Shown here piece by piece: positions 2,770 through 61,632 of a stretch of DNA of 64,000 nucleotides. The notes under the pieces were generated by a model that was given only the letters and a program-made list of their open reading frames with translations, did no database searches and was not told the origin of the DNA. Position 1 is the stretch's first letter. Every line of letters starts with the position of its first letter. Source of the stretch: a virus; IMG/VR virus record IMGVR_UViG_3300046167_000921, positions 96,001-160,000 of that record; one strand, 5' to 3'. The translations under genes were made by a program, and so were the position numbers.

Positions 2770-4494
2770 ATGTACTCTTTTTCTGATCACGCAAAGGCTC
2801 TACTTGGGACTTATTACATGAAGGACGAGGACGGCTCCACCGAAGAAGCATTCCACAGAGCCGCATATGCCTATGCTTCGACACCCGAGCTGGCTCAGAG
2901 AATTTACGAGTACGCATGTAAGGGCTGGTTTATGTTCTCAAGCCCCATCCTCTCCAACGCGAATGGGAATGGTATGCCCATCTCTTGTTTTCTCACATAT
3001 GTGGAGGACACAGTCGAAGGACTCATCGAACACACGGAGGAGTTGCGTTGGATGAGCGTTATGGGTGGCGGTGTCGGTGGTCATTGGGATCACGTTCGAT
3101 CAGTAAGTAAAAAATCACCTGGCCCAATTCCTTTCTTGAAAACGGTGGACTCTGATATGGTAGCTTACAGGCAGGGTCAAACACGCAAAGGATCTTACGC
3201 GGCGTATTTGGATGTCTCTCACCCAGATCTCATTGAGTTCCTCAACGTCCGTATGCCTACAGGGGGTGACCCCGCACGCAAGTGTTTCAACATCAACAAC
3301 GCGGTGAACTTGACGGACGAGTTCATGACCGCTGTGATGAGTGGTAGTAAATGGGATCTGGTTGACCCAGCGGATAAAACTGTCAGGGACACTGTTGACG
3401 CAAGAGAGCTTTGGCAGAGAATTCTTGAGGTTCGTTTTCGTACAGGAGAGCCATACCTTAACTTTATTGATGAGGCAAACAGGCACTTACCTCAGCCTTT
3501 AAAGGACAAGGGTCTTAAGATTCACGGGTCTAATCTCTGTAACGAAATCCACCTTCCCACAGGTGTGGGTCGTTCAGCGGTCTGCTGTCTATCTAGCCTC
3601 AATGTTGAGATGTTTGATGAGTGGAAGGACACATCTATCGTTGAGGACTTGATTGAGTTCCTTGACGACGTACTTCAGTTCTTCATTGAGAACGCACCTG
3701 CTCAATTGGGGAAAGCTGTCCGCAGTGCTCAATCTGAGCGTTCACTTGGCTTGGGTACGATGGGCTTCCATGCATACCTACAAAAGAAGGGTCTTCCTTT
3801 CGAGTCAGTGTTTGCGGTCTCTGCGAACCGAAAGATTTACTCGACGATCAAAGAACGGGCTGTTGCTTCTTCTAGGAGGCTCGCAGAACTCAAGGGGGAA
3901 TATCTTGATGGGGTTGGTTCGGGCATGAGGAACAGTCACTTGCTGGCCATCGCCCCGAATGCGAATTCGGCTATTATACTTGATACAAGTCCTAGCATTG
4001 AGCCTTGGAAGTCTAACGCTTTCACCCACCGTACTAGAGCGGGGTCTTTTTTGCAGTTCAACAAGTATCTTAGAGCGGTGTTAGAGTCTCATCAGGAGAG
4101 ACTACCTGAAGAAGACAGAGAAGAGTGGATAGACGATCAAGTTCAATCTATCATCTTAGCTCAGGGCTCAGTTCAACACTTGGATTACCTGACCGTCTCT
4201 GAGAGGGACACTTTCAAGACCGCTTTTGAGCTTGATCAGATGTGGGTTGTTGAACATGCAGGTGTGCGTCAGGAGTGGATCTGCCAAGGCCAGAGCGTGA
4301 ACCTCTTCTTCCCTGCGGGTTCAGACAAGAACTATGTTAATGCTGTCCACTTGAGTGCGTGGAAGAAGCAACTGAAGGGGTTGTATTATCTTCGCACCTC
4401 TGCTGGTGTTGTGGCAGACAAGGTGAGCGAGAAGATTGAGCGTAAGGCTTTGAAGGACTATGACATAGACGAGTGTATTAGCTGTCAGGGCTGA
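2770..4494 (+). CDS. nrdA: Class Ia ribonucleotide reductase alpha subunit, no N-terminal ATP cone
   Basis: FMFSSPIL, PISCF, GSNLCNEI (active-site N-x-C-x-E), VCCLSSLN, IAPNANS, GLYYLR, C-terminal CxxC (ECISCQG). Confidence 0.97.
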   Translation: MYSFSDHAKALLGTYYMKDEDGSTEEAFHRAAYAYASTPELAQRIYEYACKGWFMFSSPILSNANGNGMPISCFLTYVEDTVEGLIEHTEELRWMSVMGGGVGGHWDHVRSVSKKSPGPIPFLKTVDSDMVAYRQGQTRKGSYAAYLDVSHPDLIEFLNVRMPTGGDPARKCFNINNAVNLTDEFMTAVMSGSKWDLVDPADKTVRDTVDARELWQRILEVRFRTGEPYLNFIDEANRHLPQPLKDKGLKIHGSNLCNEIHLPTGVGRSAVCCLSSLNVEMFDEWKDTSIVEDLIEFLDDVLQFFIENAPAQLGKAVRSAQSERSLGLGTMGFHAYLQKKGLPFESVFAVSANRKIYSTIKERAVASSRRLAELKGEYLDGVGSGMRNSHLLAIAPNANSAIILDTSPSIEPWKSNAFTHRTRAGSFLQFNKYLRAVLESHQERLPEEDREEWIDDQVQSIILAQGSVQHLDYLTVSERDTFKTAFELDQMWVVEHAGVRQEWICQGQSVNLFFPAGSDKNYVNAVHLSAWKKQLKGLYYLRTSAGVVADKVSEKIERKALKDYDIDECISCQG

Positions 4495-5177
4495 CTGTCT
4501 AAGAACCTTTGAGCTACTCTTTCGGCGGAGGAGCTTCTATCCCTAAAGAAGTTCTTAACTGACCCAAATATTCCTCTTTGGTCTATGATTGCGGCCTTAG
4601 CTTCTATGAAGAACTCATTTACCGTCAAGCCTATGTTAGTTGGCCAGCCGTCAATTGCTGTGATGTAAAGCTTCCTCCTTAAAAAGGGGTCGGTTTTTTT
4701 CAGCCTCTTGAGGTCGGTGAGAAGCTGGGTTATTTCATCCTCTTGAGCCTCTTTCGCAGATCGCACTAACTCTTTAATTTCATTAATGAGTGATTGCAAA
4801 GCTTTATTTGAAATCTCTTCCCTTCTCTCAGTTGTCGTGACCATTCCGTCAGGCCATTTGAGTGTAGAGTACTTGAAGTAGAAGCCTTTTTTTTCAAGGT
4901 AGGGGATGTCTTCTTCTTCTATCTTATAGCCTGACAGGTCGCTGTCGATGAATTTAGTGTCAGCGGGGAAGGCTTCCCTGCCTGCACTTGTCAGTATGGA
5001 TTTGTGTACGCTCTTGTGAAAGATGCATCCTTTGAAGACTAGGCTTCTTGGATTTGCTTTTTGAAGTATTTCTTCAAAGATACCTCTCCGTATTTCAGAG
5101 AAGTCGTGTTGGGTGAAAAGCATTTCCCCCGCTTTGAGAGACTTCAAGAGGACTAAAGATTTTTCTGCCTGTGGCAT
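4485..5177 (-). CDS. hypothetical protein with C-terminal RVAQRF tag (member of dispersed tagged family)
   Basis: ORF track; ends IFGSVKNFFRDRSSSAERVAQRFLDSQP; overlaps the nrdA stop tail-to-tail. Confidence 0.7.
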   Translation of the reverse strand: MPQAEKSLVLLKSLKAGEMLFTQHDFSEIRRGIFEEILQKANPRSLVFKGCIFHKSVHKSILTSAGREAFPADTKFIDSDLSGYKIEEEDIPYLEKKGFYFKYSTLKWPDGMVTTTERREEISNKALQSLINEIKELVRSAKEAQEDEITQLLTDLKRLKKTDPFLRRKLYITAIDGWPTNIGLTVNEFFIEAKAAIIDQRGIFGSVKNFFRDRSSSAERVAQRFLDSQP

Positions 5178-14047: not shown

Positions 14048-15901
14048 TCACTTTCCCCGATTTATCCTATCTTTGAGGCTGTAGGAAGAAGGCGACCGAG
14101 GAGCTACTCTTCTAGGGTCGCTCCCTCCTCTGCCTGAGTATCTGCCCGCTGTGGCAAAGGTCTTCCCTCCAGCCATCGGGTGGGAGTAGTTTGACCTGCC
14201 TTTCGCGAAGTATCGGGTCTTCCCGATACTGTTTGAAGCGAGCCATGTCATTCTGACAATCGCATCTGACATATCGTCGTGCTTACCTGCGACCTGAGGA
14301 GCTTCTACTGTGATCAGGTGCTTTGAGTGTACTGTCTGTTGCAGTTCTAGCATCTCAACAATATAAGGCTCGTTTCCATCTTGGAGGGGGTCTTTTCTGT
14401 TATAGAGCCTCAGCTTCTTATCCCACATCATATCTTTGAAGTTCTGGTACATCTGAGAAGTGATTTGCTTCGTCATGTTAACCGAGGTGAGTTGCTTCAA
14501 GCCCCTTTTTTCGAGGGCTTGCTGGAAGGGGATGCCCGCCCATTGGTCAAAGATCCCTTCAGCGAAGTAGAACTTGTTAGAGAACCCCAGCACCCAATCT
14601 GCGACATCATCAAACTCTAGTCTCTCTTTGTCCACATAAAGACCTTCTCCCGCTTTGATCATATCGACAAGGTCTAATACGATGCGTCCGTCTTCTTCAA
14701 TATGTCCAATTGCAATAGCACTGCCGTCACCTACAAGTGCGAGGTCAATACCTACAAAGTGAGGTCTTCTGGCGGGTGCAGACCTGTTAGCTGAGAGGGA
14801 GGGGTCTACACAAGCGAGTAGGTCTTCCTCTTTCTCTATCCAGCCTCTTGTTCTATCCGTGAACTCGCCTCCGTACTCTGTGAAGAAGACTGCAGGGTTC
14901 TTGAGGTAGTGTTTCTCAAACTCTTGAGCTGGTACGGTAGGGTTGACCTCCCATGTAGGAGCTTGGACAGACAGGATATTATCAGCCGCCTGTCCTCCTC
15001 TCATGCCGATTTGGAAGATAGTATAAAACAGACCCTGTCTGCCAAGGGGAGAAGAGATAAGTATAACCCTACCCTCAACCTCCCCTATAGGTACAGTTGG
15101 ATTATCGGGGTCTTTCGCGGAGTAGGCTGATGTTGAAGGTACAACCGCGTTATAGACTTCCTCCGCCCCTGATTGTCCCGTTTCGGTAAAGTGGGCTACC
15201 TCATCAAGGATGACGCATATGTTACCTGCACCACGAAGACCTTTAGCGACACAGGATCTGAAAGTGACCTTCAGTGTGGCTTTAGCTGTAGGGTCTTCTA
15301 TGTAACGCCCATACTTCTCAACGTCAGCGGGTGTCTGAAACCTAGCATAGCTAAGAGTGTTATTCGCGGTGTAAGGCCCAAAGAATGCACAATTCCGATA
15401 GTGTCCAGACACCTCTTGATAGAGTAGGCCTGCTTGGTCTTTGTCTGTAGCTACAGAGATTATTTGTATGTTGTTGGATGCTGGCAGGCCGTAGAACTTT
15501 TGAGGGTTCTCTTTTTTGATGAGCTTATATGTCTCGTAGGCGGCGATGCACGCGGATATTGTAGTCTTCCCAGACCTCCTGCCTATGGAGAGAACCATCT
15601 CTCGCCTCTGCTTGCCTGGTATAACCTCTCCTATGTTGCATCTGCCTTCATCAAAAAGCTTTTTGAGGTAACTCTTCTCCGTGTGTACTTCTACGTTCTT
15701 CCTTGACCAATCAGAGATCTCGAAAGTCTCTGTGTCATCAAGCTCCAGCCCGTAGTGAGCTTTCAAAATAACTCTCTGCACAGGGAATAGGTTCATTTTT
15801 AAGCCCCAAGGAGACTCCACGAACTCTATGATATTAGCATCTTTTTCGGATCTCTTCCCAGCTTTGGCACTTGCACTGATTGCAACTGAGGAAAGACTCA
15901 T
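14048..15901 (-). CDS. terL: terminase large subunit
   Basis: Walker A GRRSGKT, Walker B ILDEVAHF, coupling motif ISSP, nuclease VGIDLA and C-terminal HDDMSDA. Confidence 0.93.
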   Translation of the reverse strand: MSLSSVAISASAKAGKRSEKDANIIEFVESPWGLKMNLFPVQRVILKAHYGLELDDTETFEISDWSRKNVEVHTEKSYLKKLFDEGRCNIGEVIPGKQRREMVLSIGRRSGKTTISACIAAYETYKLIKKENPQKFYGLPASNNIQIISVATDKDQAGLLYQEVSGHYRNCAFFGPYTANNTLSYARFQTPADVEKYGRYIEDPTAKATLKVTFRSCVAKGLRGAGNICVILDEVAHFTETGQSGAEEVYNAVVPSTSAYSAKDPDNPTVPIGEVEGRVILISSPLGRQGLFYTIFQIGMRGGQAADNILSVQAPTWEVNPTVPAQEFEKHYLKNPAVFFTEYGGEFTDRTRGWIEKEEDLLACVDPSLSANRSAPARRPHFVGIDLALVGDGSAIAIGHIEEDGRIVLDLVDMIKAGEGLYVDKERLEFDDVADWVLGFSNKFYFAEGIFDQWAGIPFQQALEKRGLKQLTSVNMTKQITSQMYQNFKDMMWDKKLRLYNRKDPLQDGNEPYIVEMLELQQTVHSKHLITVEAPQVAGKHDDMSDAIVRMTWLASNSIGKTRYFAKGRSNYSHPMAGGKTFATAGRYSGRGGSDPRRVAPRSPSSYSLKDRINRGK

Positions 15902-17256: not shown

Positions 17257-19557
17257 CTATAGGTCAAAGCCGCCGAAGAGGATGTTTCCGAGATCCTTAT
17301 CTTTTGGGGCTTCTACGTTTAGTTGAATATGCTCACTCGAGGAAAGGTTGAATTGGTTAGGGTCATAAGTGTTACTAAAGAGAGATGCAATTTTCTCACT
17401 GTCTGTAGAGTTCGCGATCCTAATCATTTCTTCCTTATAGTCTGCGGGGTTCTCTACGACCTCAGACACGGAGGCCACAATCACCTTATTGTATTTCTGG
17501 CAAGTTCCCTGAGAGTTGAAGACACAAGAACCACACTTGCTAGTTTTTAACAAGGTAGGGATCTGGTTTGCTCTGTGTATTAAAGCACCCTTATCGCACC
17601 CTTCAGTCCCATTGGACAGGTATGCCTCTGCGTCTACATAGGCGTGTCCTGAGAGACCTTCGTGCTCATCTCTTAGGGAGGCGATCTTAGATTGGTACTC
17701 ATGTACTACGTTCTCGTTGAATCTTGAGGTAAGAAGAATATTTAACTCTTCACCGACCGCTCCTTCACTCATTTTTCTCTTTAGCCAAGAAGAGACTTTC
17801 TGCTCAGTGGCACTTACAACATTAGATTTTTTATGACCCAGCACATGAGCAGTTTCTTCTCCCACATACACATTAGACTCGCTTGGTGTCGCCGCGAATT
17901 CGAAAGCTTTTCTCACGAAGTCGTTAGGGTCTTCTATAGAGCTTATCTTTTCATATTGCTCTTTGCCCAATAGTCCCGTCGATAAGAGCTTATCAACTTT
18001 TGCATTGGCGGCCTTCCAAGAATTCGCGTTGGCTCTCTTCTCTCTACTAGGGAGAGGCTCTACTGCTTTGTTTCGAGCCTTAGTCATCCTATGCTCTGTT
18101 AGGCTATACTCTTGATAAGACCTCTGCTCTGCAGGTCTGGCTATGACTTCAAGAACAGAGGCAAGCTTGTCTTCGGGTGTCTTCTTTCCTTGGATAGCTT
18201 CCCCTACTTCTTCGTAGGAGATCTCACCCGCCCTTAAGAGTTGAGATATCTTTAACATAGCGGATTTCTGACGCTTTGCGTATTCTCGTTCTTCTTTACG
18301 GGGTACACTTGCTTCCCTAGAGATCTTCTCTTTCTTCATATTGAAATATGAAGTACTCTCACCTTGCCCGCTATAATCTGATGCCGCCGACGGTCGGCTT
18401 GCCATCCTATACAAAAGGTTTATCTTCTCTGTAGGAGTTCCTTTAGAGTTTAGGGCCTTTGTTGTCTCGCTCTCGCCGAGAAACCCTTGTGAGACGAGCT
18501 GTCCTGCAATCTTCTCAAGTCTCCTTTGAGCGGTCGAAGTTTCTCTGTGTTCCCTTGAATCAACCTTTTCAACAATAGTAGAGGTTTTCTTCAGGTTACT
18601 AGTGCCGTCATGGTTAGGAAACCAAGTCTGTGTAGCAACAGACTCTGGTTGCTTGCTCATTTGAGAGAAGAGACTCTTGATCTTCTCTTTGTAGCTTGAG
18701 CCTGCTTCCTTCTCTATGCCACAAGCTTCAAACTTAGGCTTGAGCAAAGAGTGGGCTTTCTTCCAAGATATATCTTTAACACTAGCGACAACTTCCATCC
18801 CCAAGAACCTGTCAAAAGGAGTTCCTTTGGCGATCAGGTACATGCATGAAGCACACTTCTTGTTAATTTCCGCATCCCACTTTCCATTGAAGATACCTGG
18901 GAAGTGGCTCGCTCTGATGTAGACCTTTCCGTATAGACCTGAATCTTTCGAGAGCCTCCCCCTTAGCTCCTTGTCCTCTACCGATTTGAGATCTAGGTTG
19001 TCAAAAGCGAGCTTCCTGTATGCCTTTTCTTTTTTTTCTCGGTAAGAGTCACCTGGTAACTTGCTTTGTTCTTTTCGGTATGGGTTTAAATAAGGCTCAT
19101 TCTTATGGTTGGTGTTAGGGATGATAGTCGTACCATCAGTAGAGGCAGAACCCCATAGCTCTTGAAGGGCTTTGAGGTTGCTTGCCTCAGGGTCATTGAG
19201 GTTTCCCTCTTCCATATTCTTAATAACTTCTTCAAGGGATCTTACACCCTTAAGGTCGGGCTCGGGTTGTGAAGCAAGCCAAGAGTGATCCACAAGGTTA
19301 ATGTCTTGACCTGCGTCTCTTGTGAGTTCCGCCATATTCAAGTCGGCTTCGACAGCTAAGCCATCAGGCATATCAGAGTGTAGATTACCATCAGGAGGGA
19401 CGATACCTCGAGGTAAACCTGCGATCCCTTTAGCTTCAGGGAGGCGTGCTCCGTCGAGGACACCATCATTATATTCGGTGTCGAAGTGGAAGCCGTCTAA
19501 CATGTAGTTAGAACCGTTTGTAAGGGAGAATCCTCCATTGGGTGTCTTGCTACTCAT
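17257..19557 (-). CDS. 766-aa hypothetical protein with three internal helical repeats and Cys motifs
   Basis: Repeats TPTEKINLLYRMASRP / TPEDKLASVLEVIARP / DPNDFVRKAFEFAATP; KCASCMYL and KCGSCVFN...CQKY. Confidence 0.8.
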   Translation of the reverse strand: MSSKTPNGGFSLTNGSNYMLDGFHFDTEYNDGVLDGARLPEAKGIAGLPRGIVPPDGNLHSDMPDGLAVEADLNMAELTRDAGQDINLVDHSWLASQPEPDLKGVRSLEEVIKNMEEGNLNDPEASNLKALQELWGSASTDGTTIIPNTNHKNEPYLNPYRKEQSKLPGDSYREKKEKAYRKLAFDNLDLKSVEDKELRGRLSKDSGLYGKVYIRASHFPGIFNGKWDAEINKKCASCMYLIAKGTPFDRFLGMEVVASVKDISWKKAHSLLKPKFEACGIEKEAGSSYKEKIKSLFSQMSKQPESVATQTWFPNHDGTSNLKKTSTIVEKVDSREHRETSTAQRRLEKIAGQLVSQGFLGESETTKALNSKGTPTEKINLLYRMASRPSAASDYSGQGESTSYFNMKKEKISREASVPRKEEREYAKRQKSAMLKISQLLRAGEISYEEVGEAIQGKKTPEDKLASVLEVIARPAEQRSYQEYSLTEHRMTKARNKAVEPLPSREKRANANSWKAANAKVDKLLSTGLLGKEQYEKISSIEDPNDFVRKAFEFAATPSESNVYVGEETAHVLGHKKSNVVSATEQKVSSWLKRKMSEGAVGEELNILLTSRFNENVVHEYQSKIASLRDEHEGLSGHAYVDAEAYLSNGTEGCDKGALIHRANQIPTLLKTSKCGSCVFNSQGTCQKYNKVIVASVSEVVENPADYKEEMIRIANSTDSEKIASLFSNTYDPNQFNLSSSEHIQLNVEAPKDKDLGNILFGGFDL

Positions 19558-42700: not shown

Positions 42701-44702
42701 CAGATAATGTTAAAGATCTGATCCAAGATGCAGTTACAATTTCATTTCCGTTTGCAGCGGCAGCAGGAGCCGTAATTGTACCCGTGCCTGTTACAACTAG
42801 GTTAGATTGTAACTCCGCCTCTACGCCTACAACAATTCTCTCCCCCGCGTCTGTAGTTACGAACGTGAGGTAGTTATTACCTCCTTCAGAGATAACAAGA
42901 GCCTCGGCTTGATTGTCCGTGAGGGTGATCTCTCCTACAGACAGGCTTCCATTGAGAGTAAGGTTTCCACCCTGTAAGAGGGGGACGCTAGCTCCATCTG
43001 CAAGATCGGTGGTCGCTAGAGTCCTGTTCTCGAAGTTAACTCCGTCGTGGATAATGACATGCTTATTTACAGGAGCTACCACCGCCACATCATTCAGGTC
43101 ATCTAAACCTGACCCTGAAGCTAGGAAGTCTCCTGTATCATTAGTAACCGCAGTTCCAAATCCAAGAGTTGCTCTAGCGTTGGCGGGGTCAATTTCTAGA
43201 GAGAGCCTTGCCTCAACGGGAGTCTTAAGAACGAGATCTGCTCCGTCTCCTGCAAGGAAGTGGTCTGCAGTAGGCTGTGCGATATCGGAGATCTCGGTTA
43301 GTCGGTCATTCTGCTCCTGTACATCAATCCCAACCTCAAGATCAAGAGCCACTCTAGCTTGAGCTGGGGTCTTGAGTACGATGTTATTGCCGTCGCTGAT
43401 GAGGATGTTGTTAAGAGCCTGCCCTGCATTGGCGATGTCTTGTAAGCTTTGATCGAGAGATCCTCTAATTTCAGAGCTTGCATCATCATAGGTAAAGCTC
43501 ATACCTGTGGAGTGGTTCAGGTGAGTGAACTGACCTCCAACAAGGTCTTCAACCTCTTCTTGCGTAAATCCTGTGTTTGGGGGGTTGACCTGCTCGAGAA
43601 CTCCTCCTACAACCTGAAGGATCTTTCCGTTAACTAAGTTTCCGACTAAGCTAACATCGTTAAGGTCGCCTATAGAGGAGTTAGCTGTTAGGAGGTCTGC
43701 ACCGTCTTGGAGGTCTGCGGAGGACAAAGCCCTGTTTGTAAAGTTAGCTCCATCATAGACCAACACTTGATTTAGAACGGGGTTTGCCACAGTTACGTCG
43801 TCTAAGTCATTAGCGGAACTCACGGAACTCACTAGACCAGGTGAGAATGACCCGTTATTGTAGACGATAGTATCACCATTCTGAATCCCTTGTGTGTCCA
43901 CATCAGAGAGGGTGTTTATACTAGGTAGTGCGGTTAGGTTAGCTCCGTCTAGTGCAGGTAAGGTACTTTGTTCCGCGAACTCAAGAACCTCGCCTACATT
44001 AGTGCCTGTGTCCTTAGTGGAGGCAGTGCCGAAAGCTGGTGTGTCTGAAAGGTCGTTGTAAGACAAGACTTGGTTTACAAAGGCTACTCCATTATATCGG
44101 AGTATATGTCCGTCTACGGCACCTGCTATTAGGACATCACTGAGGCCACTAATAGAGAGGTGATCTATCGTGACGACGCCTGATATTTGAGAGTTTGCGT
44201 CGTCATATGTCCAAGTGACACCTCCGCCATCTTGGAACATACCTCCTACAAAATCTTCAATATCTTCTTGAGTGAAGCCTCCCCCACCATTAGCGGGGTC
44301 TACTTGGGTAAATACTCCACCTACAACTTGGAGTATTTTCCCGTTTACTATACCGTCTCCAAGATCTACGTCTTGGAGGTCTCCGATAGAAGAGAGGGTG
44401 TCTACGATGCCGAGATTTGTTCTAGCATTCGCTTGAGAGGCAACGCCGAGATCGGCAATCTCTGAGAGGAGGTTATCTACAACAAGGAAGTTCTGAGGAT
44501 TACTGCCGTTGAGGGTCTCTATTTCAATGATTGCGTCTTGTATTGCCGCGTGTACTTCTGCGGGGTAATCGTTAGTCCAGACAACGCCGTTTCTTCGTAT
44601 ATTACCGACTGAAGTAAACCCGTTCTCGTCCGAGGTTACGGTGAAGGTGTATATGCCGAAAGAGGTGGCTACTTCATAGTTCTTACTGATCACGTCTGCC
44701 AT
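36792..44702 (-). CDS. giant tail-fibre-like structural protein (2636 aa)
   Basis: Recurrent DLSDV/DLNDV, LQDIAxL...GNFIVGDG, ARATLGFGTAV and ITAPAAAANGNEIVTASWIR modules; very acidic. Confidence 0.88.
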   Translation of the reverse strand: MADVISKNYEVATSFGIYTFTVTSDENGFTSVGNIRRNGVVWTNDYPAEVHAAIQDAIIEIETLNGSNPQNFLVVDNLLSEIADLGVASQANARTNLGIVDTLSSIGDLQDVDLGDGIVNGKILQVVGGVFTQVDPANGGGGFTQEDIEDFVGGMFQDGGGVTWTYDDANSQISGVVTIDHLSISGLSDVLIAGAVDGHILRYNGVAFVNQVLSYNDLSDTPAFGTASTKDTGTNVGEVLEFAEQSTLPALDGANLTALPSINTLSDVDTQGIQNGDTIVYNNGSFSPGLVSSVSSANDLDDVTVANPVLNQVLVYDGANFTNRALSSADLQDGADLLTANSSIGDLNDVSLVGNLVNGKILQVVGGVLEQVNPPNTGFTQEEVEDLVGGQFTHLNHSTGMSFTYDDASSEIRGSLDQSLQDIANAGQALNNILISDGNNIVLKTPAQARVALDLEVGIDVQEQNDRLTEISDIAQPTADHFLAGDGADLVLKTPVEARLSLEIDPANARATLGFGTAVTNDTGDFLASGSGLDDLNDVAVVAPVNKHVIIHDGVNFENRTLATTDLADGASVPLLQGGNLTLNGSLSVGEITLTDNQAEALVISEGGNNYLTFVTTDAGERIVVGVEAELQSNLVVTGTGTITAPAAAANGNEIVTASWIRSLTLSDLTDTTEDVQDIAGVMFNHVNHSTGITFTYDDINNRVDASLASSLQDLSQLNRANGNFIVGDGNNFVVLANQNARDALGLGSASTSEVADFLASGSGLEDLADVSIAGVAPIQMLVSDAQGDFSNRTISTADLSNGSKVPLLDGSDELILANTFKPNGGINVNNLFLVEGLTGNTEISGSLSVDGLSSMEGGLNVVNPNTGANSLSITPNGNDATVNSAGGNISFNAVNISTTGTLDAGVTTLTSLATASLLMSDNLASALSISEGGNQYLTFVTTDGDEKVVFGKTFEGISGSSIGNLLLEDNSITTSNNGGVDFGTEALTTTGNLTVGNNLFAVAGASGNTSVAGELTVTGATTLSSGLSANNQNITNVADIEVDSITSGGNQISLNVADNQGIALKIEESTNNVSYVEIDTTDNSEEIRLLKTTVIDGTMTIGSGSIEDSTGTIDLGNTDLTTGGDITVQNLTVNGVQNINNQNNLAVANSIIELNNGFVGNNANDLGLLLTRGNLDDAVFLWDEGLDIFRLATHSGAVDINTIDFDAVAGIADADLRVGDLDSQGNISTTGSLTVNSTGTILAPAQAVADNHIVTAAWVRGLELSDLANTTEAVQDIVGAQFTLANHSTGITFAYTDDGGVNDGQVTATLQDSLVSIASLNPVAGNILYTTGNNTFAVSAVTQEGRDLIASNDPHAHLNLEVGVDVQEQNDRLTEISAIAQPTADNFLAGDGADLVLKTPTQARTSLGIDQVNARATLGFGTAVSNDTGDFLASNSGLDDLNDVTITNDPQAGTPLVNQVLVYTGNSLFENIQLSSNQLSDGTSLIKTSSSINDLSDVDTTNKAQGKVLIFNAQGALTVGDNTIIEESQDAVGSLINSGTQTDITVTYDDVNDKIDFSVDATIARVNSPTLTGTPESPTAVQGDDSTQIATTAFVQNEIQFINVGGNFQPVNDRLTEISAIAAPTADNFLAGDGNDIVLKTSTQARTSLGIDQANARATLGFGTAVTNDTGDFLSSNSGLDDLSDISIAVPANKHFIVHDGANFENRLISTADLLDGSEIPLLNGGDLTLNGSLSVTEISLTDNQAEALVFTEAGNDYLTFVTTDAGEKVVFGKEIESSAGATLGNLVLSGTSISSGGNGVSFGAENITTTGSVTCVDLTVTGTLTTIDTDNLSVKDRVIELNNGIGGNNNTLDIGLFLNRGDLDDAVVLWDEGEDAFVFATHSGAVDGTSTDFSSVAGLSKAPVQTGDLNVEGDISSTLGVTVGGDLVVTGTGSITAPAAAANGNEIVTASWIRSLTLSDLTDTTEDAQDIAGAMFDHANHSTGLTASYDDADNRVDLTLSDNLQDIAELANTEGNFIVGDGNGFVSETPAQARTSLGIDQANARATLGFGTAVSNDTGDFLASNSGLNDLSDVTVAGSANKHFIVHDGANFENRVISTADLSDGGNILLLQGGNLTINGTLSVTEISLTDNQAEALIFTEAGNDYLTFVTTDGSEKVVFGKEIESSAGATLGNLVLSGTSITSGGNGVSFGAENISTIGDLTVGNNLFTVAGASGNTSISGNLTVTGSGSITAPAAAANGNEIVTASWIRSLTLSDLTDTTEDAQDITGSMFDHANHSTGLTASYDDANSRVDLALSSNLQDISGLAVADGNFIVGDGGNFVAETPAQVRASLDLEIGTDIQAQSGLLDDISALEPLGADKIIYTDAQGSIDSYTVTSVGLDLLDDATVADQRATLGLKDASLADTTVNGGGADAGKAILTDVQGKLGALDGSNLTSLGSVNTLSDVNVTTGDFVGDEVLVWNANAGEFVSTILAESARDAVGSALEAGTHAFVEDQGISFTHDDVNNQIDLEIGINTSNLIDINSQADTNKQVLRYTTDNGLNKYVPTVLGTSTEYNVGTSPNELILLSSPTQSNVNAVADLIVLGQVIETVDYGSVGDAFVQNTDFSTDWNGAGFNDPVIYAEVDHGVLVS
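37850..43300 (-). repeat. dispersed near-identical intragenic repeats in fibre 2
   Basis: CAGATAATGTTAAAGATCTGATCCAAGATGCAGTTACAATTTCATTTCC at ~37928, 38819 and 42701; ARATLGFGTAV module at ~38540, 39700, 40420 and 43140. Confidence 0.9.
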
Positions 44703-44844
44703 CGTACTTCCCTTTAATCTAGTTTCTTAGATAACTGAATCAATAAATAGTTTATTGAGAGAAACCAAGATCTTCGTTGACTCCTTTTGTTTTAGACTCT
44801 TTATACTCGGGTTGAGAGGTTTTTAAATGAAGGAGGGTAAGAGT

Positions 44845-45792
44845 ATGAGAGATCTTTTTTTGAGTAAGGTACAGGATAAGGGGGGGTTCGTTTGTCATCA
44901 TGCACATTTTGACAAGGCGTACCTCATCTCTCCCGAAACGCTTGAAAAGTCACAGAGTAGTCTTCGGGAGAAATGGGATCTGTATCGGGAGCTTAAAGAG
45001 GGTTACACACATTCTGACTTATATAGCAGAATGTGTCGTGGTGTAGAGGCTATGGTGTCTCAAGGTGTCACTAAATGCAGAACCTTTATTGATGCTGATG
45101 GTATTGTGGGAACTGCCCCTATGGAGGTTGCCTTAGAGGTCAAGAATCACTATAGAGCAAAAGGCTTCGACCTCCAACTAGCGGTTCAGCCACTTGAAGG
45201 CGTTCTGGAGGCTGAACCTCGCCGTGCATTCGTAGAAGCCTGTGAAATGGCAGATGTTGTGGGCGGTCTTCCCGATAGAGACAGAGATCCTGAGGCACAT
45301 ATGGATTTCATATTCTCTTTGGCAAAGAGGCTAGGGAAGCCTGTTGATGTTCATGTGGGACAGAACAACATCCCCTCTGAAAGAGAATCGCATATGGTTG
45401 TAAATAAAGTCATACGGCACGGGCTAGAGGGTCAGGTGAACCTAGTTCACGCAATTTCCTTAGCTTGCCAAGACACGTATCGCAGGTCTTCGACTATCAG
45501 GAAGATTAAAGACACAAACACAGGGGTGATAGTCTGCCCCTCAGCCGCGATCAGTATGAAGCAAAAGACACACATATACGCCCCGATACACAACTCTATA
45601 GCTCCTGTGAGGGAACTCGTAGATGCAGGGGTCGATGTGATGCTTGGGGTGGATAATATCCATGACCTCTTCATGCCCCTTGTTGACGGGGATCTGTGGT
45701 TTGAATGCCGCCTTATGATGGAAGCGATTAGGTGTTATGATCTCGACCTTGTCGCAAAGATAGCTTCTAATACTAAAGGCTTTCAGGTATGA
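44845..45792 (+). CDS. metal-dependent amidohydrolase, cytosine deaminase (CodA)-like
   Basis: HHAHFDKA (HxHxD), GVTKCRTFID, VVGGLP, DVHVG, HAISL, GVDNIHD; start placed at ATG behind AGGAGG. Confidence 0.85.
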   Translation: MRDLFLSKVQDKGGFVCHHAHFDKAYLISPETLEKSQSSLREKWDLYRELKEGYTHSDLYSRMCRGVEAMVSQGVTKCRTFIDADGIVGTAPMEVALEVKNHYRAKGFDLQLAVQPLEGVLEAEPRRAFVEACEMADVVGGLPDRDRDPEAHMDFIFSLAKRLGKPVDVHVGQNNIPSERESHMVVNKVIRHGLEGQVNLVHAISLACQDTYRRSSTIRKIKDTNTGVIVCPSAAISMKQKTHIYAPIHNSIAPVRELVDAGVDVMLGVDNIHDLFMPLVDGDLWFECRLMMEAIRCYDLDLVAKIASNTKGFQV

Positions 45793-46104
45793 CCAGAAAC
45801 AGATATCTCTTCTAGGTCAAAGTAGCCAACAAAAAATAGCTTAGCCCGCCTAGACTTTTTGTTCACATTCCGTATTGTGTCATCTGCTCCGCTGTGGTAT
45901 CAACGGTATGAGGCTCATGGCTTCATTCAAGAAGTAACACATGAAAGATTAAACCTTCTCCTTCGATAGCTTGGAGGAAGGTTACTTAGCCATTATAGAA
46001 GCATCCGAGAGTTACGGGAGGCTTCAAGAGGCAATATTGACAAGGTTTTTTGATCGAATTTTATGCCTGTCCTAAGAGATAGGTCATTTAGGGGGTTTTG
46101 AGAG

Positions 46105-47313
46105 ATGCATAATGTTAAATCTGTAATTGGAGGTCAGTGGGGTGATGAGGGGAAAGGAAAGGTTGTGGACTTTCTCTCCTCAGACGCCGATTACTGTATT
46201 CGTTTTCAGGGAGGATCTAATGCGAGTCATACCATTATCTATGAGGGAGAGACTTTCAAACTTCGCCTCTTACCGTCTGGTGTTCTCCAAGGAGCTGAAG
46301 TTATACTCGGAGCGGGTATGGCCATTAACTTAGATGTCCTCTTTTCTGAGATGAGGGACGTTGAAGAGAGGCTGAGCATTTCCCTAGAGGGGTCTCTTCA
46401 CATAGACAGCAGAGCTCACCTTGTTCTCCCTACTCACATCTACTACGATGTTCAAAGAGAAGAGGCTTCAGGCAACCGTATCGGGACTACTCGAAATGGA
46501 ATTGGGCTTTGCTACGAAGATAAGGCTCGCAGGGTGGGTATTCGTGCTGGCGATCTTCTTGATTCTAAAGAATTGCCTCACCGTGTAGATGTTTTCTTGA
46601 GGGCTTACGGAGAGAACACATCATATCAAGAGACGAAGCTTCTAGACATCCTCGAAGAGTGGTCGGAGCAGTGGAGGGGGTATATTAGGACAGACATGAC
46701 TTCTTTTCTTCATGGTATCTTTCATGAAGGGAAGAATGTGGTCATTGAGGGGGCTCAGGGAACTCTCCTTGATGTCACACATGGGACATATCCTTATGTC
46801 ACCTCTTCCCACACTATCGCCCCTAGTATCGGTGCGAGTCTGGGCTGTGCTCTACCTCGAGATACAGATACTATCGGAGTGTTCAAGGCGTATTGCACTC
46901 GAGTAGGTGAAGGCGATTTCATATCTGAGGACTTAGACGAAGACGGGGAGAGACTTCAAGCGATAGGCAAGGAGGTTGGTGTTGTCACCGCTCGTAAACG
47001 TAGGTGTGGGTGGTTGAACCTTGACGACCTCATTTATGCTCACCAGCTCAACGGCTTCACGCAGATTGCTTTAACCAAAGTCGATGTCTTGGATGGCTTT
47101 GAGAAGGTGAAGGTGTGGTATCAAGACCAGATGCACCTGCTTGAGGGCTGGGGAGGTTCAGCCTCGGCGAAGTCTTGGGAGGAACTGCCTGAGAATCTTC
47201 AGTGGTTCATCTCTTTCATAGAAGATAACTCAGGAGTTCCTGTAACTATGGTCTCTAACGGAGCAGGTAGGGAGAATACCTTGTTGCACCCAGACTTTAT
47301 AGACCCTTTTTGA
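46105..47313 (+). CDS. purA: adenylosuccinate synthetase (canonical PurA)
   Basis: GGQWGDEGKGK (Asp retained), QGGSNASHT, IGTTRNGIG, EGAQG, GTYPYVTSS, RKRRCGW, LTKVDVLDG. Confidence 0.95.
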   Translation: MHNVKSVIGGQWGDEGKGKVVDFLSSDADYCIRFQGGSNASHTIIYEGETFKLRLLPSGVLQGAEVILGAGMAINLDVLFSEMRDVEERLSISLEGSLHIDSRAHLVLPTHIYYDVQREEASGNRIGTTRNGIGLCYEDKARRVGIRAGDLLDSKELPHRVDVFLRAYGENTSYQETKLLDILEEWSEQWRGYIRTDMTSFLHGIFHEGKNVVIEGAQGTLLDVTHGTYPYVTSSHTIAPSIGASLGCALPRDTDTIGVFKAYCTRVGEGDFISEDLDEDGERLQAIGKEVGVVTARKRRCGWLNLDDLIYAHQLNGFTQIALTKVDVLDGFEKVKVWYQDQMHLLEGWGGSASAKSWEELPENLQWFISFIEDNSGVPVTMVSNGAGRENTLLHPDFIDPF

Positions 47314-47773
47314 GATCAGAGATCTCAGATTTAATGTCGTCCAGCATCCTTGAAGCAACACGGATCTGGTCGGCTCTCTTTCGGTTCTTCCAGACCCTCT
47401 CATAGACGGTCTTTAGCTTTTTCCCGAAAGAGTATTTCCTCTCCACCTTGTTCATCATGTCATCTATGATCTTAGAGTAGTATTTGGCTTTCGGGTCTCT
47501 TCTAAGATCTACGAGTTTTCCTGCTAACTCCTCAAGGCCTTCATCCGTCTGCTTAAACTTTCTACTCTTTAGGGTATCTGCCACATCATTCAGGGTTGCT
47601 AACACCTTAGTATAGGTCTCTACCTCCTTTCTGTTTTTCTTCAGAAAGGATTTTGCTTCTTGTTGTTCAGGGTGGTTTCTATCTCTAGCGTAAGATTGGA
47701 TGGTAAGCAGGGAAACTTCTCTGCCGTTGAGCTTGAACTTTTTACCTGTATAAGCCGCTTCGAGGTGCCTCAT
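47297..47773 (-). CDS. hypothetical protein with C-terminal RVASR coiled-coil tag
   Basis: Ends KYSFGKKL...KRADQIRVASRMLDDIKSEISDLKKGL, paralogous to the C-terminus of 48487..49734. Confidence 0.8.
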   Translation of the reverse strand: MRHLEAAYTGKKFKLNGREVSLLTIQSYARDRNHPEQQEAKSFLKKNRKEVETYTKVLATLNDVADTLKSRKFKQTDEGLEELAGKLVDLRRDPKAKYYSKIIDDMMNKVERKYSFGKKLKTVYERVWKNRKRADQIRVASRMLDDIKSEISDLKKGL

Positions 47774-47828
47774 TTATCTTCTCTACCTTCTATCCTTCTT
47801 TGTATAACCTCTACCGTATATAAAAGAA

Positions 47829-48002
47829 ATATCAATTGAGGAGCGTGGCGACCTTAAGGACACCCTTCAGGACATACTTGGAGGCGTCAGATCAACCTGT
47901 ACTTATATCGGAGCACAGGAGCTGAGAGAGTTAAGCAAATGCACGACTTTTATCCGTGTCTCTCAGCAGTACAACCCCGTATATGAGTCTAAGACTATCT
48001 AG
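47829..48002 (+). pseudogene. guaC: C-terminal remnant of GMP reductase
   Basis: Manual translation [57 protein letters not shown] matches the GuaC C-terminus (RG...DILGGLRSxCTYVGA..LKEL....TFIRV); no start codon and no N-terminal part. Confidence 0.9.
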
Positions 48003-48484
48003 CGTCTGTCTAGTAGCCTTTGTTTAGCAATTTCCTTAGCATAGTATTCGTCAGGACTAGCGGCCGAACTTGCCATGTCTCCTACAAAAGCGGATAATAG
48101 CAATCCAGCGGCAAGCCCTCCGATGCTAAAGATCTTCATGGTAATAGCACCAAGCACCAATATCACGAGCATCATTCCGCCGTGCCCTAGTACATTTTTG
48201 AAGTAGATGTTGAAGTAGCCCCACATCTTTTTTAGGTTGCCTCTCTTAGGGGCTTTTTCTAGAACCTTTTTAAATTCAGGGTCTTTCTCCAGCTTCCTCA
48301 TCGCTTTCTTGATGTCTTTCTCCGAAGCTCCGTAAATGAACTCTGGTCGACGAAAAGCACCTGTGAGCTTATTCAGGATGATAAAAGCCTCCCTTTTAAA
48401 CCTTCTAAGGATAGCTTGCTTCTCAAGTTTGGCGATACGGTTCTCAAGCTGGGCGATTTTCTGTGATGCGGTTAGTTGTCTCAT
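47999..48484 (-). CDS. membrane protein with N-terminal TASQ coiled-coil tag
   Basis: [24 protein letters not shown]; two hydrophobic segments near the C-terminus. Confidence 0.8.
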
Positions 48485-48486
48485 GA

Positions 48487-49734
48487 TTATAGCTCCTTCT
48501 TGAGATCAGAGATCTCTTTGTTGAGCTGGTTAAGCATTTGCGATGCTGTTCTGATCTGAGAAGCCCTTTTACCTCTGCTGAAGAGCTTCTTCAGATAATT
48601 AAGACCCTTGCCTACAACAGAGTACTTCTCCTCGATCTTAGCTTGGAGGTCTTCGAGGATGTTTTCATACTCTCTAACGTAATCAGGTTGAGCCTGTAGG
48701 GAACCCACTTCCTGAGCAAGAGCTTCCAGCTCCTTGTCTTTCTTAGCTCTGGAGACACGTTTGGTGATGTCTTGGATCGCTACTCTTCGGAGTCTCTCTT
48801 CTTCTTCTTTTCGGAGTCTCTCTTCTTCTTTTCGGGCTTTCTCTTCTTCTCTGCGGAGTCTCTCCTCTACTGTCTCACCCTTGTGAGGGAACTTGTCAGA
48901 TATGGACAGAGGTATCCCTTCTGCATTCTTGAGATCCGCATTTCTGAGATCCGCATCTATAAGTTTCGCATTTCTGAGATCCGCACCAGTGAGATCCGCA
49001 TCTATAAGTTCCGCACCAGTGAGATCCGCATCTATAAGTTCCGCACCTATAAGTTCCGCACCTATAAGATTCGCACCAGTGAGATCCGCACCTATAAGAT
49101 TCGCACCCTGTAGCTTTGCGTCTTTGAGATTTGCACGTTCAAGATTCGCATCTTTGAGATCCGCATCTTGTAATCTCGCCTCTTCGAGATCTGCATTCCT
49201 GAGCTTCCCATTGAAAAGCTTCGCACCAATTAGCTTCGCACCAATAAGTTTCGCGTCACTGAGATCCGCTTTTGTGAGATTTGCACCCGTGAGATCCGCA
49301 TCTGTAAGATTAGCCCCTGTCAGATTAGTGTTGGTGAGCTTCGTATTTTTGAACTTAGCTCTTTCTATCCACGCACCTCTGAGATCCGCACCCGTGAGAT
49401 CCGCACCCGTGAGATTAGCTTCCAAAAGCCACGCACTTCTGAGATCCGCATCCTTGAGATTAGCTCTTTCTATCCACGCACGTATAAGCTGAGCAGACCT
49501 TAGGTCTGACTCTTCCATGTTCGCACCTTTGAGATTCGCATCAGTGAAATCCGCTTTTATACAATTCGATTTAAAGAGACTTGCACCCGTCAGATCCGCA
49601 CCTTCAAAGTTTGCACCTTCAAAGTTTGCCAAATTCATCTGCGAATTTGATAGATCCGCCTCCGAGAGGTCCGCATCTCGCATATCATCTCTGAGAGAAT
49701 AACGTACTGCTTCTACATCTTTTGGATTAGCCAT
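48487..49734 (-). CDS. pentapeptide-repeat protein with charged linker and C-terminal tag
   Basis: Long A(D/N)Lxx repeat tract; ends KYSVVGKGL...KRASQIRTASQMLNQLNKEISDLKKEL. Confidence 0.92.
   Translation of the reverse strand: MANPKDVEAVRYSLRDDMRDADLSEADLSNSQMNLANFEGANFEGADLTGASLFKSNCIKADFTDANLKGANMEESDLRSAQLIRAWIERANLKDADLRSAWLLEANLTGADLTGADLRGAWIERAKFKNTKLTNTNLTGANLTDADLTGANLTKADLSDAKLIGAKLIGAKLFNGKLRNADLEEARLQDADLKDANLERANLKDAKLQGANLIGADLTGANLIGAELIGAELIDADLTGAELIDADLTGADLRNAKLIDADLRNADLKNAEGIPLSISDKFPHKGETVEERLRREEEKARKEEERLRKEEEERLRRVAIQDITKRVSRAKKDKELEALAQEVGSLQAQPDYVREYENILEDLQAKIEEKYSVVGKGLNYLKKLFSRGKRASQIRTASQMLNQLNKEISDLKKEL
48931..49107 (-). repeat. 15-bp tandem array encoding pentapeptide repeats
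   Basis: Interleaved GAGATCCGCA(TCT/CCA/TTT) and ATAAGTTCCGCACC units in 15-bp register. Confidence 0.9.
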
Positions 49735-49811
49735 GATTATAGCTCCTTATGTTTGCCTTGGTTCTGTATATTGATGTTATAGAAAACCTATGAGAAAAAG
49801 GCTAAAAGACT

Positions 49812-59178: not shown

Positions 59179-59867
59179 TGAAAGACATGATAGAATATTT
59201 CAAGACAATGATCACCCCCCCTGTAAAGGATGCTTGTGTCATTGTGAGTAAACCTAGCGAGATCAACTTTGAAAGCTACCTAGAAGAGGTTTTTGAAGAG
59301 GGGGCTATTGCCTCCTCTCTCCAACCAAAAGCTCACGGTGTCATCCTGCTAGGAGAGCCTACAAAAGAGGAGTCTCAGAAGATTCAAGACATACTCAAAC
59401 CCGGAGGTCACGTAGTCCTAATCCCCGACTCAGATATTGGGTACAAGGGGGTAATCGCCCTTGAGGACACAGGCTTTGAGGTACGAGATGCGATCTTTGT
59501 GGCAGAAGAGGCAGATAGCTTCTATTACACGTCAAAGGCGAGTAGGTCAGAGAGAGAAGCGGGCTTGGTTGCGGAAGAAGGGAAGAGGGGTAACGTTCAC
59601 CCTACGGTCAAGCCTATTGAGATTATGGAGTGGTGTGCTAGAGGCATAGAGGCAAGCTCTACTATAGTAGACCCTTTTATGGGGTCTGGTACTACAGGGA
59701 TTGCAATGTCTCGAAAAGGTCACAACTTCATTGGTATAGAGTTGAACCCAGAGTATGCACAGATCTCAGAGCAGAGGATTCGTCATTGGAAGCCTATTGA
59801 CACTGAGATCAAGTCAGAGGCGAAGCCTGTTGACACTGAGTTCAAGGGTCAGGTTTCTCTTTTTTAG
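59178..59867 (+). CDS. DNA methyltransferase SAM-binding C-terminal segment with a degenerate extra N-terminal copy (split MTase part 3)
   Basis: FYYTSKASRSERE, HPTVKP, DPFMGSGTTG (motif I), FIGIELN; upstream ILKPGGHV...EDTGFEVRDAI. Confidence 0.9.
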   Translation: MKDMIEYFKTMITPPVKDACVIVSKPSEINFESYLEEVFEEGAIASSLQPKAHGVILLGEPTKEESQKIQDILKPGGHVVLIPDSDIGYKGVIALEDTGFEVRDAIFVAEEADSFYYTSKASRSEREAGLVAEEGKRGNVHPTVKPIEIMEWCARGIEASSTIVDPFMGSGTTGIAMSRKGHNFIGIELNPEYAQISEQRIRHWKPIDTEIKSEAKPVDTEFKGQVSLF

Positions 59868-61243
59868 AACTCGTCGTCCATGTCATAACCCATGAGGTCT
59901 TCCTCATAACCCATGTGGTCGTCCATCATAGCCATGAGTTCCTGATCTTCACTCATGTGGTCATACATACCCATGTGTTCTTCCTCATTGCTCTCTACCT
60001 CTTCACCGTAGAGACCCTCGACAAAACGAGATGCGACGCGACGACCCGCTGTTGGGTTATGGTATGCCCTCCGAGTTACGAACTTCCTTAACTTTCTTCC
60101 GAAGCTCATGTCCAGCTTTGTTCTCTTGTCAGTCTTGATGTTCTTAAGCGTGACGTTTGAGAGATCTACGCCAGAGAGATCTGCCCCTCTAAGATCTGCA
60201 CCTGTAAGATCCGCACCGTCGATAGAAAGAACGCCTGTGAGATCCGCACCGTCAAGATTCGCACCCCTTAACTTCGCATCTGTCAGATCCGCACCTTCGA
60301 AATTGCTTCCGTCAGAGAGATCTGCTTCTATAAGGATTGTGTTTCTCATCTTAGCGTTTGTGAAATCTCCGCCCTTAAGTTTACAAGATTTCATGTTAGC
60401 ACGATTAAAGTTAGTTCCTACAAAAGATCCGTTTTCTGCAGAAGACCCTTCAAGATTTGCACCCTCGAAAATGAGAGATTCTAAGTTCGCCAGATTTCCA
60501 AACGAGCCTGAATAGGTGATCCTGCTAAGATCTGTCCTCATTGAGAAGGTACACCCTTCGAGAGCCCCTTCGTCTTCAAATTCGATGCCCACAAGGTCGG
60601 TTTTTTTAAATGAAGTGCCATTGACGCTGTGGATCTTCTTAACTCCAATGAAACTGCATTCTTCAACCTCACCATTCATGATGACAACGTTTGTCAGATC
60701 CGCGTGGTTAAAGATGACTCTCTCAAGACCATCAGCGGTTGCCATGTTCGCGTTCGCCATAGTTGCTCTGGTAAAGTTAGCTCCCCTCAAAACAGTATTG
60801 TTTATGTTTGTGAAGTTAAGGTTAGCCCCTACGAACTGTGCCATCGTAAGATCGGCATTTTCGAAATTAGCCATGCCTATCCTGAGGCCACTAAAATTAG
60901 ACCTCTCCAATTCACAGTCAGAAAAATTCGTATGGGACACAGTCACAAGCCCCTTAATCTTGGTGAAGTCCCTCTGGTTGAGGTTCATATCAGAGAGATC
61001 CGCACTAGGGATGTATTTACCTAGCTTTTCAATGATATCGGGATCTTCCTTTTTTTTGTAATTGATGTAATTTTTGAGTGCCTTATCATCCTTTTTACTT
61101 TTTTTCAATGCTTCAAGGAGTACTTGCTCTTGCTCTTCATCCTCTAACCCAGCCTGGCGTGCGGCGGCTCTCCTCACCCTGTTAAGGTAAGCTCTTCTCT
61201 TCATTGCGAGTTGTTTCTGAACTCTTCGTGATGCTCGTCTCAT
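59864..61243 (-). CDS. pentapeptide-repeat protein with basic N-terminus, RRVASRF tag and acidic Met-rich tail
   Basis: Start reassigned to ATG 61243 behind AAGGAG; A(D/N)(L/F)xx repeats; MSFGRKLRKFVTRRAY...GRRVASRFV. Confidence 0.9.
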   Translation of the reverse strand: MRRASRRVQKQLAMKRRAYLNRVRRAAARQAGLEDEEQEQVLLEALKKSKKDDKALKNYINYKKKEDPDIIEKLGKYIPSADLSDMNLNQRDFTKIKGLVTVSHTNFSDCELERSNFSGLRIGMANFENADLTMAQFVGANLNFTNINNTVLRGANFTRATMANANMATADGLERVIFNHADLTNVVIMNGEVEECSFIGVKKIHSVNGTSFKKTDLVGIEFEDEGALEGCTFSMRTDLSRITYSGSFGNLANLESLIFEGANLEGSSAENGSFVGTNFNRANMKSCKLKGGDFTNAKMRNTILIEADLSDGSNFEGADLTDAKLRGANLDGADLTGVLSIDGADLTGADLRGADLSGVDLSNVTLKNIKTDKRTKLDMSFGRKLRKFVTRRAYHNPTAGRRVASRFVEGLYGEEVESNEEEHMGMYDHMSEDQELMAMMDDHMGYEEDLMGYDMDDEF

Positions 61244-61632
61244 GTTGTTTCTCCTTTGAATGACATAGCCACTATTGTAAGCCATAAACAAGATATAAAA
61301 GACATAGTGTTTTTTTGAACTTCCCTATCTAGGTTGAACCTATGACTCTATCCTACAACGTCACCCTCCCTACTTTATTATTTAAAGAGTTCTTTAGTCT
61401 CAGCGGACTTTTCAGTTGAGATATCCTTACTGCCTCTTCCCTGACATGGGCAGGGGGAAAAAGAATAAGCCCCTCCAATCTCCTTCTATAAGAGTAAAGG
61501 GGTACGAGGGTGAGTAGAGTAGGTGTTGAGACAACTAAAAAAATAGGATGGCTGTCTATGCTCATGCTGTAGGAGAGCCTGTAACCTAGTTTAGGGCTAC
61601 TCGGAAGACCCTAATCCAGCCACAAAAACCAG

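Follow-up and report, generated by a model that had tools for sequence, protein, structure and literature searches.

Three adjacent genes on the minus strand of a phage contig, here designated A, B and C, encode proteins that carry portable modules at one end, and on balance these tags are probably capsid-addressing labels of the kind known from bacteriophage T4, which would be cut off by the prohead protease. Both the tags and the proposed cut motif, [KR]-x-A-S, would be new. The genes lie in a window of 64,000 nucleotides (bases 96001-160000) of a single IMG/VR virus contig of 177,493 bp, IMGVR_UViG_3300046167_000921 (45.8% GC, 57% complete according to CheckV). The contig belongs to an uncultured giant tailed phage of marine origin, in which the head module can be identified. 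The evidence comprises the modules themselves, which are portable and subject to purifying selection, and the enrichment of the motif in head-assembly proteins, along with where it is placed in them and how well it is kept. Positions below are those of the window unless marked as genome positions or given with a locus handle. All three genes are present on the minus strand as the first-pass annotation described them, with the following features.

47297..47773, minus strand: gene A, 158 amino acids (aa), N-terminal alpha/beta domain (residues 1-46) and helical tail module
47300..47569, minus strand: tail module of A, residues 69-158 (tail profile hidden Markov model, HMM, E 2e-37)
47351..47362, minus strand: RVAS of A, candidate protease site (R, A and S are invariant alignment columns)
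47300-47353, minus strand: 18-residue amphipathic end helix of A, after RVAS
47999..48484, minus strand: gene B, 161 aa, N-terminal leader and hydrophobic hairpin
48413..48484, minus strand: 24-residue leader of B, ending K-Q-A (leader HMM, E 1e-15)
48077..48196, minus strand: hydrophobic stretch of B, residues 97-136 (Kyte-Doolittle 19-residue windows up to 2.2)
48487..49734, minus strand: gene C, 415 aa, pentapeptide-repeat body, E/R/K-rich linker, conserved junction and 90-residue tail
48784..48873, minus strand: E/R/K-rich helical linker of C (21-nt tandem repeat)
48490..48759, minus strand: tail module of C, residues 326-415 (tail HMM, E 1e-45)
48541..48570, minus strand: double motif KRAS-QI-RTAS of C, the best-conserved part of the tail (invariant alignment columns)

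The first-pass annotation held that a single module was common to the three neighbours. This is borne out for A and C, which have their C-terminal 83 residues in common (41% identity, E 9e-14). It fails for B, which has a separate leader: identity of this leader with the A/C tail was rejected, as the tail HMM gave E 6.9 and a short end-HMM no match. In place of one tag there are at least three unrelated ones, a 90-aa helical tail, a 24-aa leader and an acidic tail derived from the scaffold.

Membership of the tail family is defined by a match to a profile of ~90 residues together with an invariant core, and A and C have both. The tail comprises a helical hairpin and a basic amphipathic helix, then an invariant double [KR]-x-A-S site and, at its end, a further amphipathic helix. 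The core reads [KR]RA[SD]-Q-[IV]-R-[TVI]-A-S and is followed by an amphipathic helix of 18-20 residues in two variants. An AlphaFold2 (AF2) model of A (predicted local distance difference test, pLDDT, 82) is all-helical from residue 48, and Foldseek comparison of this model with the PDB and BFVD libraries gave nothing at E <= 0.001, returning generic helical bundles only. The A-type N-domain recurs in proteins of 300 and 541 aa in G001, a near-complete relative of 312 kb with terminal repeats and a protease 76% identical to the one encoded here. These two proteins keep only the core and the helix (KKNASLKIAS..., GKAASEKMHIAS...), so that the minimal unit at the C-terminus consists of the double site and end helix. 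Resemblances to the tail core are also seen in the N-terminal IRVAS..QMNR.L of the protease (hhalign E 0.0065) and in the GKSASQ and VRMASQ segments of the scaffold.

Scanning the genome and its relatives with the tail HMM, a check proposed with the first-pass annotation, revealed nine copies in the 177-kb contig and none in G002, a near-complete relative of 297 kb whose protease is 67% identical. Apart from those of A and C, five copies form a tandem array (genome 7.9-13.4 kb), one is internal to a 457-aa protein and one, which is short, sits on another pentapeptide protein. Within the tandem array, GTTTATATATAGGTGTCC was found after a terminator. Tail carriers make up only 39 clusters among 1.84 billion representative proteins, and tblastn searches with the tail against phages gave chance matches only. 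The tail is almost always at the extreme C-terminus. Most carriers are pentapeptide proteins, but at least 10 unrelated bodies bear it too, and one carrier also has an N-terminal leader. Synonymous divergence (dS) between tail copies reaches 0.78, and the ratio of nonsynonymous to synonymous divergence (dN/dS) is 0.15-0.39 (0.23-0.33 for the C tail against the array copies); such low ratios despite synonymous divergence indicate purifying selection on the peptide itself.

The leader family is recognised by a profile match at the N-terminus whose end reads R[IV]AxLE[KR]xA, a signature present in B and lacking in A and C. Some 10-11 copies were found in this contig, about 28 in G001 and 18 in G002. 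Among B orthologues the leader is almost invariant and the bodies are just 30-40% identical. The leader is helical and hydrophilic and is found on membrane and soluble proteins alike; at least four leader proteins besides B have hydrophobic membrane-like segments, and the two helices predicted in B from residues 97-136 are likely to span the membrane. The proposal that the tags are portable and can be attached at either terminus thus stands, with the leader N-terminal and the tail C-terminal on their respective sets of bodies.

At the nucleotide level, the first 11 leader codons are identical in four paralogues, save for one synonymous base, and later leader codons differ synonymously. This identity points to either a recent conversion event or constraint at the beginning of the mRNA. 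The four leader starts are as follows.

Window 48452-48484, minus strand: leader start of B
L002:6513-6545: leader start of a paralogue
L005:6446-6478, minus strand: leader start of a paralogue
L002:11171-11203: leader start of a paralogue

Leader and tail do have a suggestive likeness in that TASQ is followed by a heptad helix in both. TASQ occurs seven times against 0.57 expected, with six of the seven within leaders or tails, and the pattern is real; as homology the likeness is statistically unproven, with an hhalign probability of 1.2% and E 0.044 for tail against leader. A 357-aa protein (genome 91038-92111, minus strand; L005:11038-12111) is the sole place where the two tag types abut, a tail-like ...ASKMLNQLQRE being joined directly to the leader-like TLQELELRVASLEREAG.

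Two more distant genes of the window, D and E, had also been listed as carrying related tails.

59864..61291, minus strand: gene D, pentapeptide-repeat protein (PF00805, 139.9 bits against a cut-off of 20.2)
59867..60100, minus strand: tail of D, a copy of the scaffold, with a basic helix, RVAS (60029-60040) and acidic His/Met-rich repeats
4485..5177, minus strand: gene E, orphan of 230 aa ending in ERVAQRFLDSQP, with RVAQ at 4509-4520

Neither belongs to the tail family: D and E gave no match to the tail HMM or the end-HMM, and BLAST E values were about 2. The tail of D instead has its origin in the scaffold. Its last 78 residues copy residues ~99-184 of the scaffold-like protein P0040, including the HMGM/MAMMDDHMG repeats (BLASTP E 6e-8 to 2e-7), and this tail is kept in three orthologues. 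D orthologues show a double site, RRASQ...RRVA[SA]RF, similar to the core of the A/C tail, and the G001 orthologue has no acidic part and ends directly after ERVAARF. The scaffold-derived tail is the most direct hint that a tagged protein may co-assemble with the core. The three D orthologues begin MRRASRR, and the listed TTG start of D (61291) is therefore probably wrong, the ATG at 61243 being used instead. A start at 61243 places a [KR]xAS motif at the extreme N-terminus. E was rejected as a family member; it matches no tail profile, a search for homologues found none, and its likeness to the tags is confined to a motif of 4-5 residues (ERVAQRFL).

The motif common to these ends is strongly over-represented in the phage proteins. 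There are 95 [KR].AS sites against 36.4 +/- 6.5 in composition-preserving shuffles (z = 9), 78 remain when paralogous contexts are removed, and the permuted controls [KR].SA, SA.[KR] and [KR]A.S are flat. The short motif is thus well above the frequency expected by chance. In x-x-A-S contexts the most enriched residues two places before Ala are Arg and Lys; in [KR]-x-A contexts Ser stands out most among the residues that follow, and Ala is strictly required before Ser. The head-assembly genes in which these sites matter most are listed here.

Genome 44353-45711, outside the window: head maturation protease (phrog_18299, 1.7e-14)
Genome 45730-47559, outside the window: acidic scaffold-like protein P0040 with two EF-hands
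Genome 48296-49174, outside the window: major head protein (phrog_2522, 4e-51)
Window 6174-7850, minus strand: portal
Window 14048-15901, minus strand: large terminase

The protease gene directly precedes the scaffold gene, and the major head protein gene lies two genes further on. The protease was assigned as a head maturation protease from the match to its family profile and its location within the head module; searches of Pfam, NCBIfam and PDB sequences gave no match. Its closest relatives by tblastn are in an uncultured 485-kb phage (43% identity) and Tunturiibacter phage Tunturi_5 (39%), followed by gp19 of phage G and the proteases of cluster-C mycobacteriophages, and the matches include annotated prohead protease genes. 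In locus L025 (L025:3501-6224; IMGVR_UViG_3300046779_002354) the protease gene has an intein-like insertion of ~450 aa exactly between ...NSMSMG and CSVDF..., a placement which suggests an active-site position for the conserved stretch.

The K/R-x-A-S core is concentrated in head-assembly proteins, as would be expected if the tags were trimmed in the way first proposed. The scaffold has 10 sites against 0.7 expected (P = 4e-9), bordering its acidic repeats, and the protease has four against 0.39 expected (residues 25, 272, 400 and 419), flanking the catalytic region. The portal has one site 17 residues before its C-terminus. By comparison, ribonucleotide reductase, terminase, purA and the helicases contain no [KR].AS site. 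A 766-aa protein encoded beside the terminase (window 17257-19557, minus strand), which has no PHROG match, contains six sites against 0.82 expected (P = 2e-4) and is a candidate for a processed head protein or polyprotein. The positions are also conserved. Five to six relatives retain the protease sites at ~25, ~272 and ~400, with variation in the middle residue, and those of the scaffold are kept between G000 and G001 although the repeats between them differ completely. Similar placement is seen in more distant phages: gp19 of phage G has KIAG, KVAS and KIAS around the protease domain, its portal gp14 has EKIAS 24 residues from the end, and matching K-x-A-[SGA] sites are found in gp331 (protease), gp332 (an acidic protein) and gp328 ('DNA ejection protein') of Tunturi_5. 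A search of the literature on cleavage sites of phage G and Tunturi_5 found none.

Taken together, the portability of the tags, the presence of the motif in head-assembly proteins, its kept positions and the scaffold tail of D fit a T4-like scheme of loading followed by trimming. Beyond this point the scheme is built by analogy, and from it we infer core binding, the scissile bond, packaging, ejection and the function of the cargo. The tags would bind the scaffold/protease core during prohead assembly, so that the cargo, comprising pentapeptide-repeat rods, small membrane-active proteins and others, would become enclosed. The prohead protease would then cut at [KR]-x-A|S, degrading the scaffold, freeing the protease domain and detaching the tags. 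The freed cargo would stay in the head and might be delivered along with the DNA, whereupon pentapeptide rods might mimic DNA and B-like proteins might insert in a membrane.

Several points weigh against this scheme. After the [KR]xA at the leader end, S or G follows in just 5 of 10 cases, and [KR].A with other following residues is not enriched. In the AF2 model the RVAS of A lies in the middle of a long helix, which would make it a poor protease substrate unless the helix unfolds. G002 has its leaders and no tail, which makes the tail dispensable. The specificity of the protease for [KR]-x-A-S is deduced from motif statistics only, and the AF2 model of the protease is unusable (pLDDT 41, from an alignment of five sequences). 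Searches of phage G and Tunturi_5 for leader and tail found neither; the tagged phages are known from sequence alone, and phage G, for which proteomes exist, is without both tags. A membrane-spanning cargo such as B is also unusual within a myovirus head.

Other explanations must be set against the same observations. The tail might be no more than an oligomerisation module, either a coiled coil or a helical bundle, belonging to a paralogous family whose members stay out of the capsid and have their role in the infected cell, perhaps as DNA mimics; we consider this unlikely. Qnr and MfpA dimerise via C-terminal helices, pentapeptide-repeat proteins are the majority of tail carriers, AF2 models the A tail as a helical hairpin plus a 38-residue amphipathic helix, and G002 manages without the tail. 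However, the best-conserved part of the tail is the KRASQIR[TV]AS doublet and not the heptad core, and this motif has a tenfold excess in the scaffold and lies on either side of the protease. An oligomerisation module also accounts poorly for a tail on so many unrelated bodies, or for the sister pentapeptide protein D bearing a piece of scaffold instead. Helix chemistry might alternatively point to the membrane, the tags being membrane-targeting or export elements whose basic amphipathic helix binds the inner membrane like the MinD/FtsA helix, with action at the host envelope. GKGLNYLKKLFSRGKR, GKKLKTVYERVWKNRKR and SFGRKLRKFVTRR have net charges of +6 to +7 and hydrophobic moments of 1.4-1.7, and hydrophobic membrane-like segments occur in B and the other leader proteins mentioned above. 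We consider this improbable, for the leader is hydrophilic and occurs on soluble proteins too, and membrane targeting leaves unexplained both the concentration of the motif in scaffold, protease and portal and the scaffold repeats on D.

There is little chance, in our view, that the conserved ends are simply DNA-level recombination handles for cassette swapping or conversion between loci, with no addressing role for the peptide. The shared leader-start codons, the identical 17-nt ribosome-site/start junction before C and B, the tandem array with its repeated terminator/promoter junctions, and the 15- and 21-nt repeats in the bodies would all suit such handles. Yet the tail copies differ synonymously and have low dN/dS ratios, and the leader is invariant as protein across orthologues with divergent bodies; both indicate that selection acts on the peptides, and cassette shuffling may coexist with addressing. 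Finally, [KR]-x-A-S, often R-R-A-S, could be a modification site rather than a cleavage site, for instance a basophilic Ser kinase consensus, since RRAS and KRAS match the classical R-R-x-S kinase consensus and the enrichment statistic alone cannot separate modification from cleavage. This seems very improbable: no kinase was seen near the head module, the motif strictly requires Ala before Ser, and the sites lie on both sides of the protease domain and of the scaffold repeats, as do the autoprocessing and scaffold-removal sites of T4, phiKZ-like phages and herpesviruses (PMC10052503, PMC9026906).

The reading of the tags as capsid-addressing labels can be extended to a more ambitious form, which we regard as conceivable and rather doubtful. 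The leader, the helical tail and the scaffold tail would then be interchangeable labels of a clade-wide modular packaging code, joined to their cargo through [KR]-x-A|S and cut by an assemblin-like protease, with a single TASQ-helix docking epitope that can be placed at either end. The head might take up dozens of proteins per genome, among them DNA-mimicking pentapeptide rods and membrane-inserting proteins, and deliver them with the DNA.

The three genes are flanked by purA, transcribed towards them, and by a pyrD-like gene, transcribed away from them. In G001 neither A nor B is found between pyrD and purA; a tail-bearing pentapeptide protein is encoded there, together with another protein of 396 aa that has two tails and an extra domain. 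The slot is therefore kept and its contents are variable. The locus DNA has no match among GenBank phages. In G001 a guaC/IMPDH-like gene (L010:6888-7970) sits between the tail-tag genes and purA; here this gene is missing from the slot and the 3' end of A directly overlaps that of purA (window 47297-47313).

The C body is a canonical pentapeptide-repeat protein, matching Pfam Pentapeptide PF00805 at 1e-74 (245.7 bits against a cut-off of 20.2), and its scores against the NCBIfam equivalogs for Qnr (85.5 against 240) and MfpA (68.3 against 360) are far below cut-off. Searches of A and C with PADLOC gave weak, meaningless matches only. DNA repeats of 15, 30 and 45 nt are present in C. A C orthologue (L007:4873-6273) is 466 aa long against 415, with a linker ~50 aa longer and a tail that is 99% identical, and the linker seems to be a single alpha-helix of variable length that spaces the tail from the pentapeptide rod.

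B is translationally coupled to C, its start lying 2 nt beyond the C stop codon. The 17-nt string AAGGAGCTATAATCATG is identical before C (49732-49748) and before B (48482-48498), both on the minus strand; the copy before B falls within the last codons of C (KKEL, stop), so that the ribosome site of B is encoded by the end of the tail. Gene A has its own upstream region, the 225-nt gap between B and A, for which Rfam and RNA folding gave nothing (z = -1.1). A loose TTCTTTTATA-like element precedes A, E and a number of leader or polyprotein genes at a distance of 35-60 nt, with the A copy at 47800-47830 (minus strand), and is a possible phage promoter. The k-mers enriched in a search for shared late promoters derive mostly from the repeated junctions of the tandem array.

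If the addressing scheme is correct, this would be the largest and most modular phage capsid-addressing system known, with tens of tagged proteins per genome and tags at either terminus, and with a cut motif distinct from those of T4 and phiKZ-like phages. It would also allow the packaged proteins of uncultured giant phages, which are possibly injected too, to be predicted by a sequence rule using metagenomes only. Pentapeptide-repeat proteins would become a new class of virion cargo, and new short tags would be available for loading foreign proteins into capsids.

Among known systems, the closest to the proposed working is the capsid-targeting sequence (CTS) of T4, a 10-residue propeptide that takes internal proteins to the scaffolding core and is removed by gp21 (PMC9026906). 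T4 Alt is also trimmed at its C-terminus, so that C-terminal propeptides exist (PMC9026906). As with the CTS of IPI-III and Alt, a short terminal peptide is here common to otherwise unrelated, fast-turning-over proteins and is bounded by the candidate cut motif of the head protease, which the scaffold and protease bear as well. The variable tagged genes of the pyrD-purA slot likewise recall the T4 internal-protein loci, which also vary. The tags have no sequence relation to the CTS, however, and contain or end in [KR]-x-A(-S) and not L/I-x-E; at 24 and ~90 residues they are longer, many are C-terminal, and the carriers are far more numerous (10-28 leaders per genome). The protease, moreover, belongs to the clade of phage G, Tunturi_5 and the cluster-C mycobacteriophages and not to Pfam Peptidase S77. 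By this comparison the present system would resemble the T4 CTS in its working without being a member of it.

In phiKZ-like phages a single short motif is found at every head-protease cut (A-x-E for SPN3US gp245), the protease sheds a C-terminal propeptide, and both short (20-24 residues) and long propeptides are known (PMC10052503). The phage described here is similarly a giant phage with many head proteins putatively cut at one short motif; it differs in the cut motif and the protease lineage, the SPN3US propeptides are not one shared portable tag, and ~80% of the SPN3US head proteins are uncut. The maturation and release sites of herpesvirus assemblin, (V/L)-x-A|S, flank the protease domain and lie in the scaffold. 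Ala-Ser occupies the candidate scissile position in both systems, with a basic P3 residue here in place of V/L; because the protease fold could not be modelled, a relation to assemblin is suggested by motif statistics only. The cargo-loading peptides of encapsulins offer an analogy, being short, mostly C-terminal and able to load diverse cargo into an HK97-fold shell, but their sequences are different, they stay attached to the cargo and no scaffold is required. Compared with the pentapeptide proteins Qnr, MfpA and HetL, C adds an E/R/K linker and a tail which those families lack. New in this analysis are the division of the supposed single module into three unrelated tags, the definition of a minimal unit at the C-terminus, the derivation of the D tail from the scaffold and the conserved pyrD-purA cargo slot, together with the rarity of the tail (39 clusters), its absence from G002 and the matching placement of the motif in phage G and Tunturi_5.

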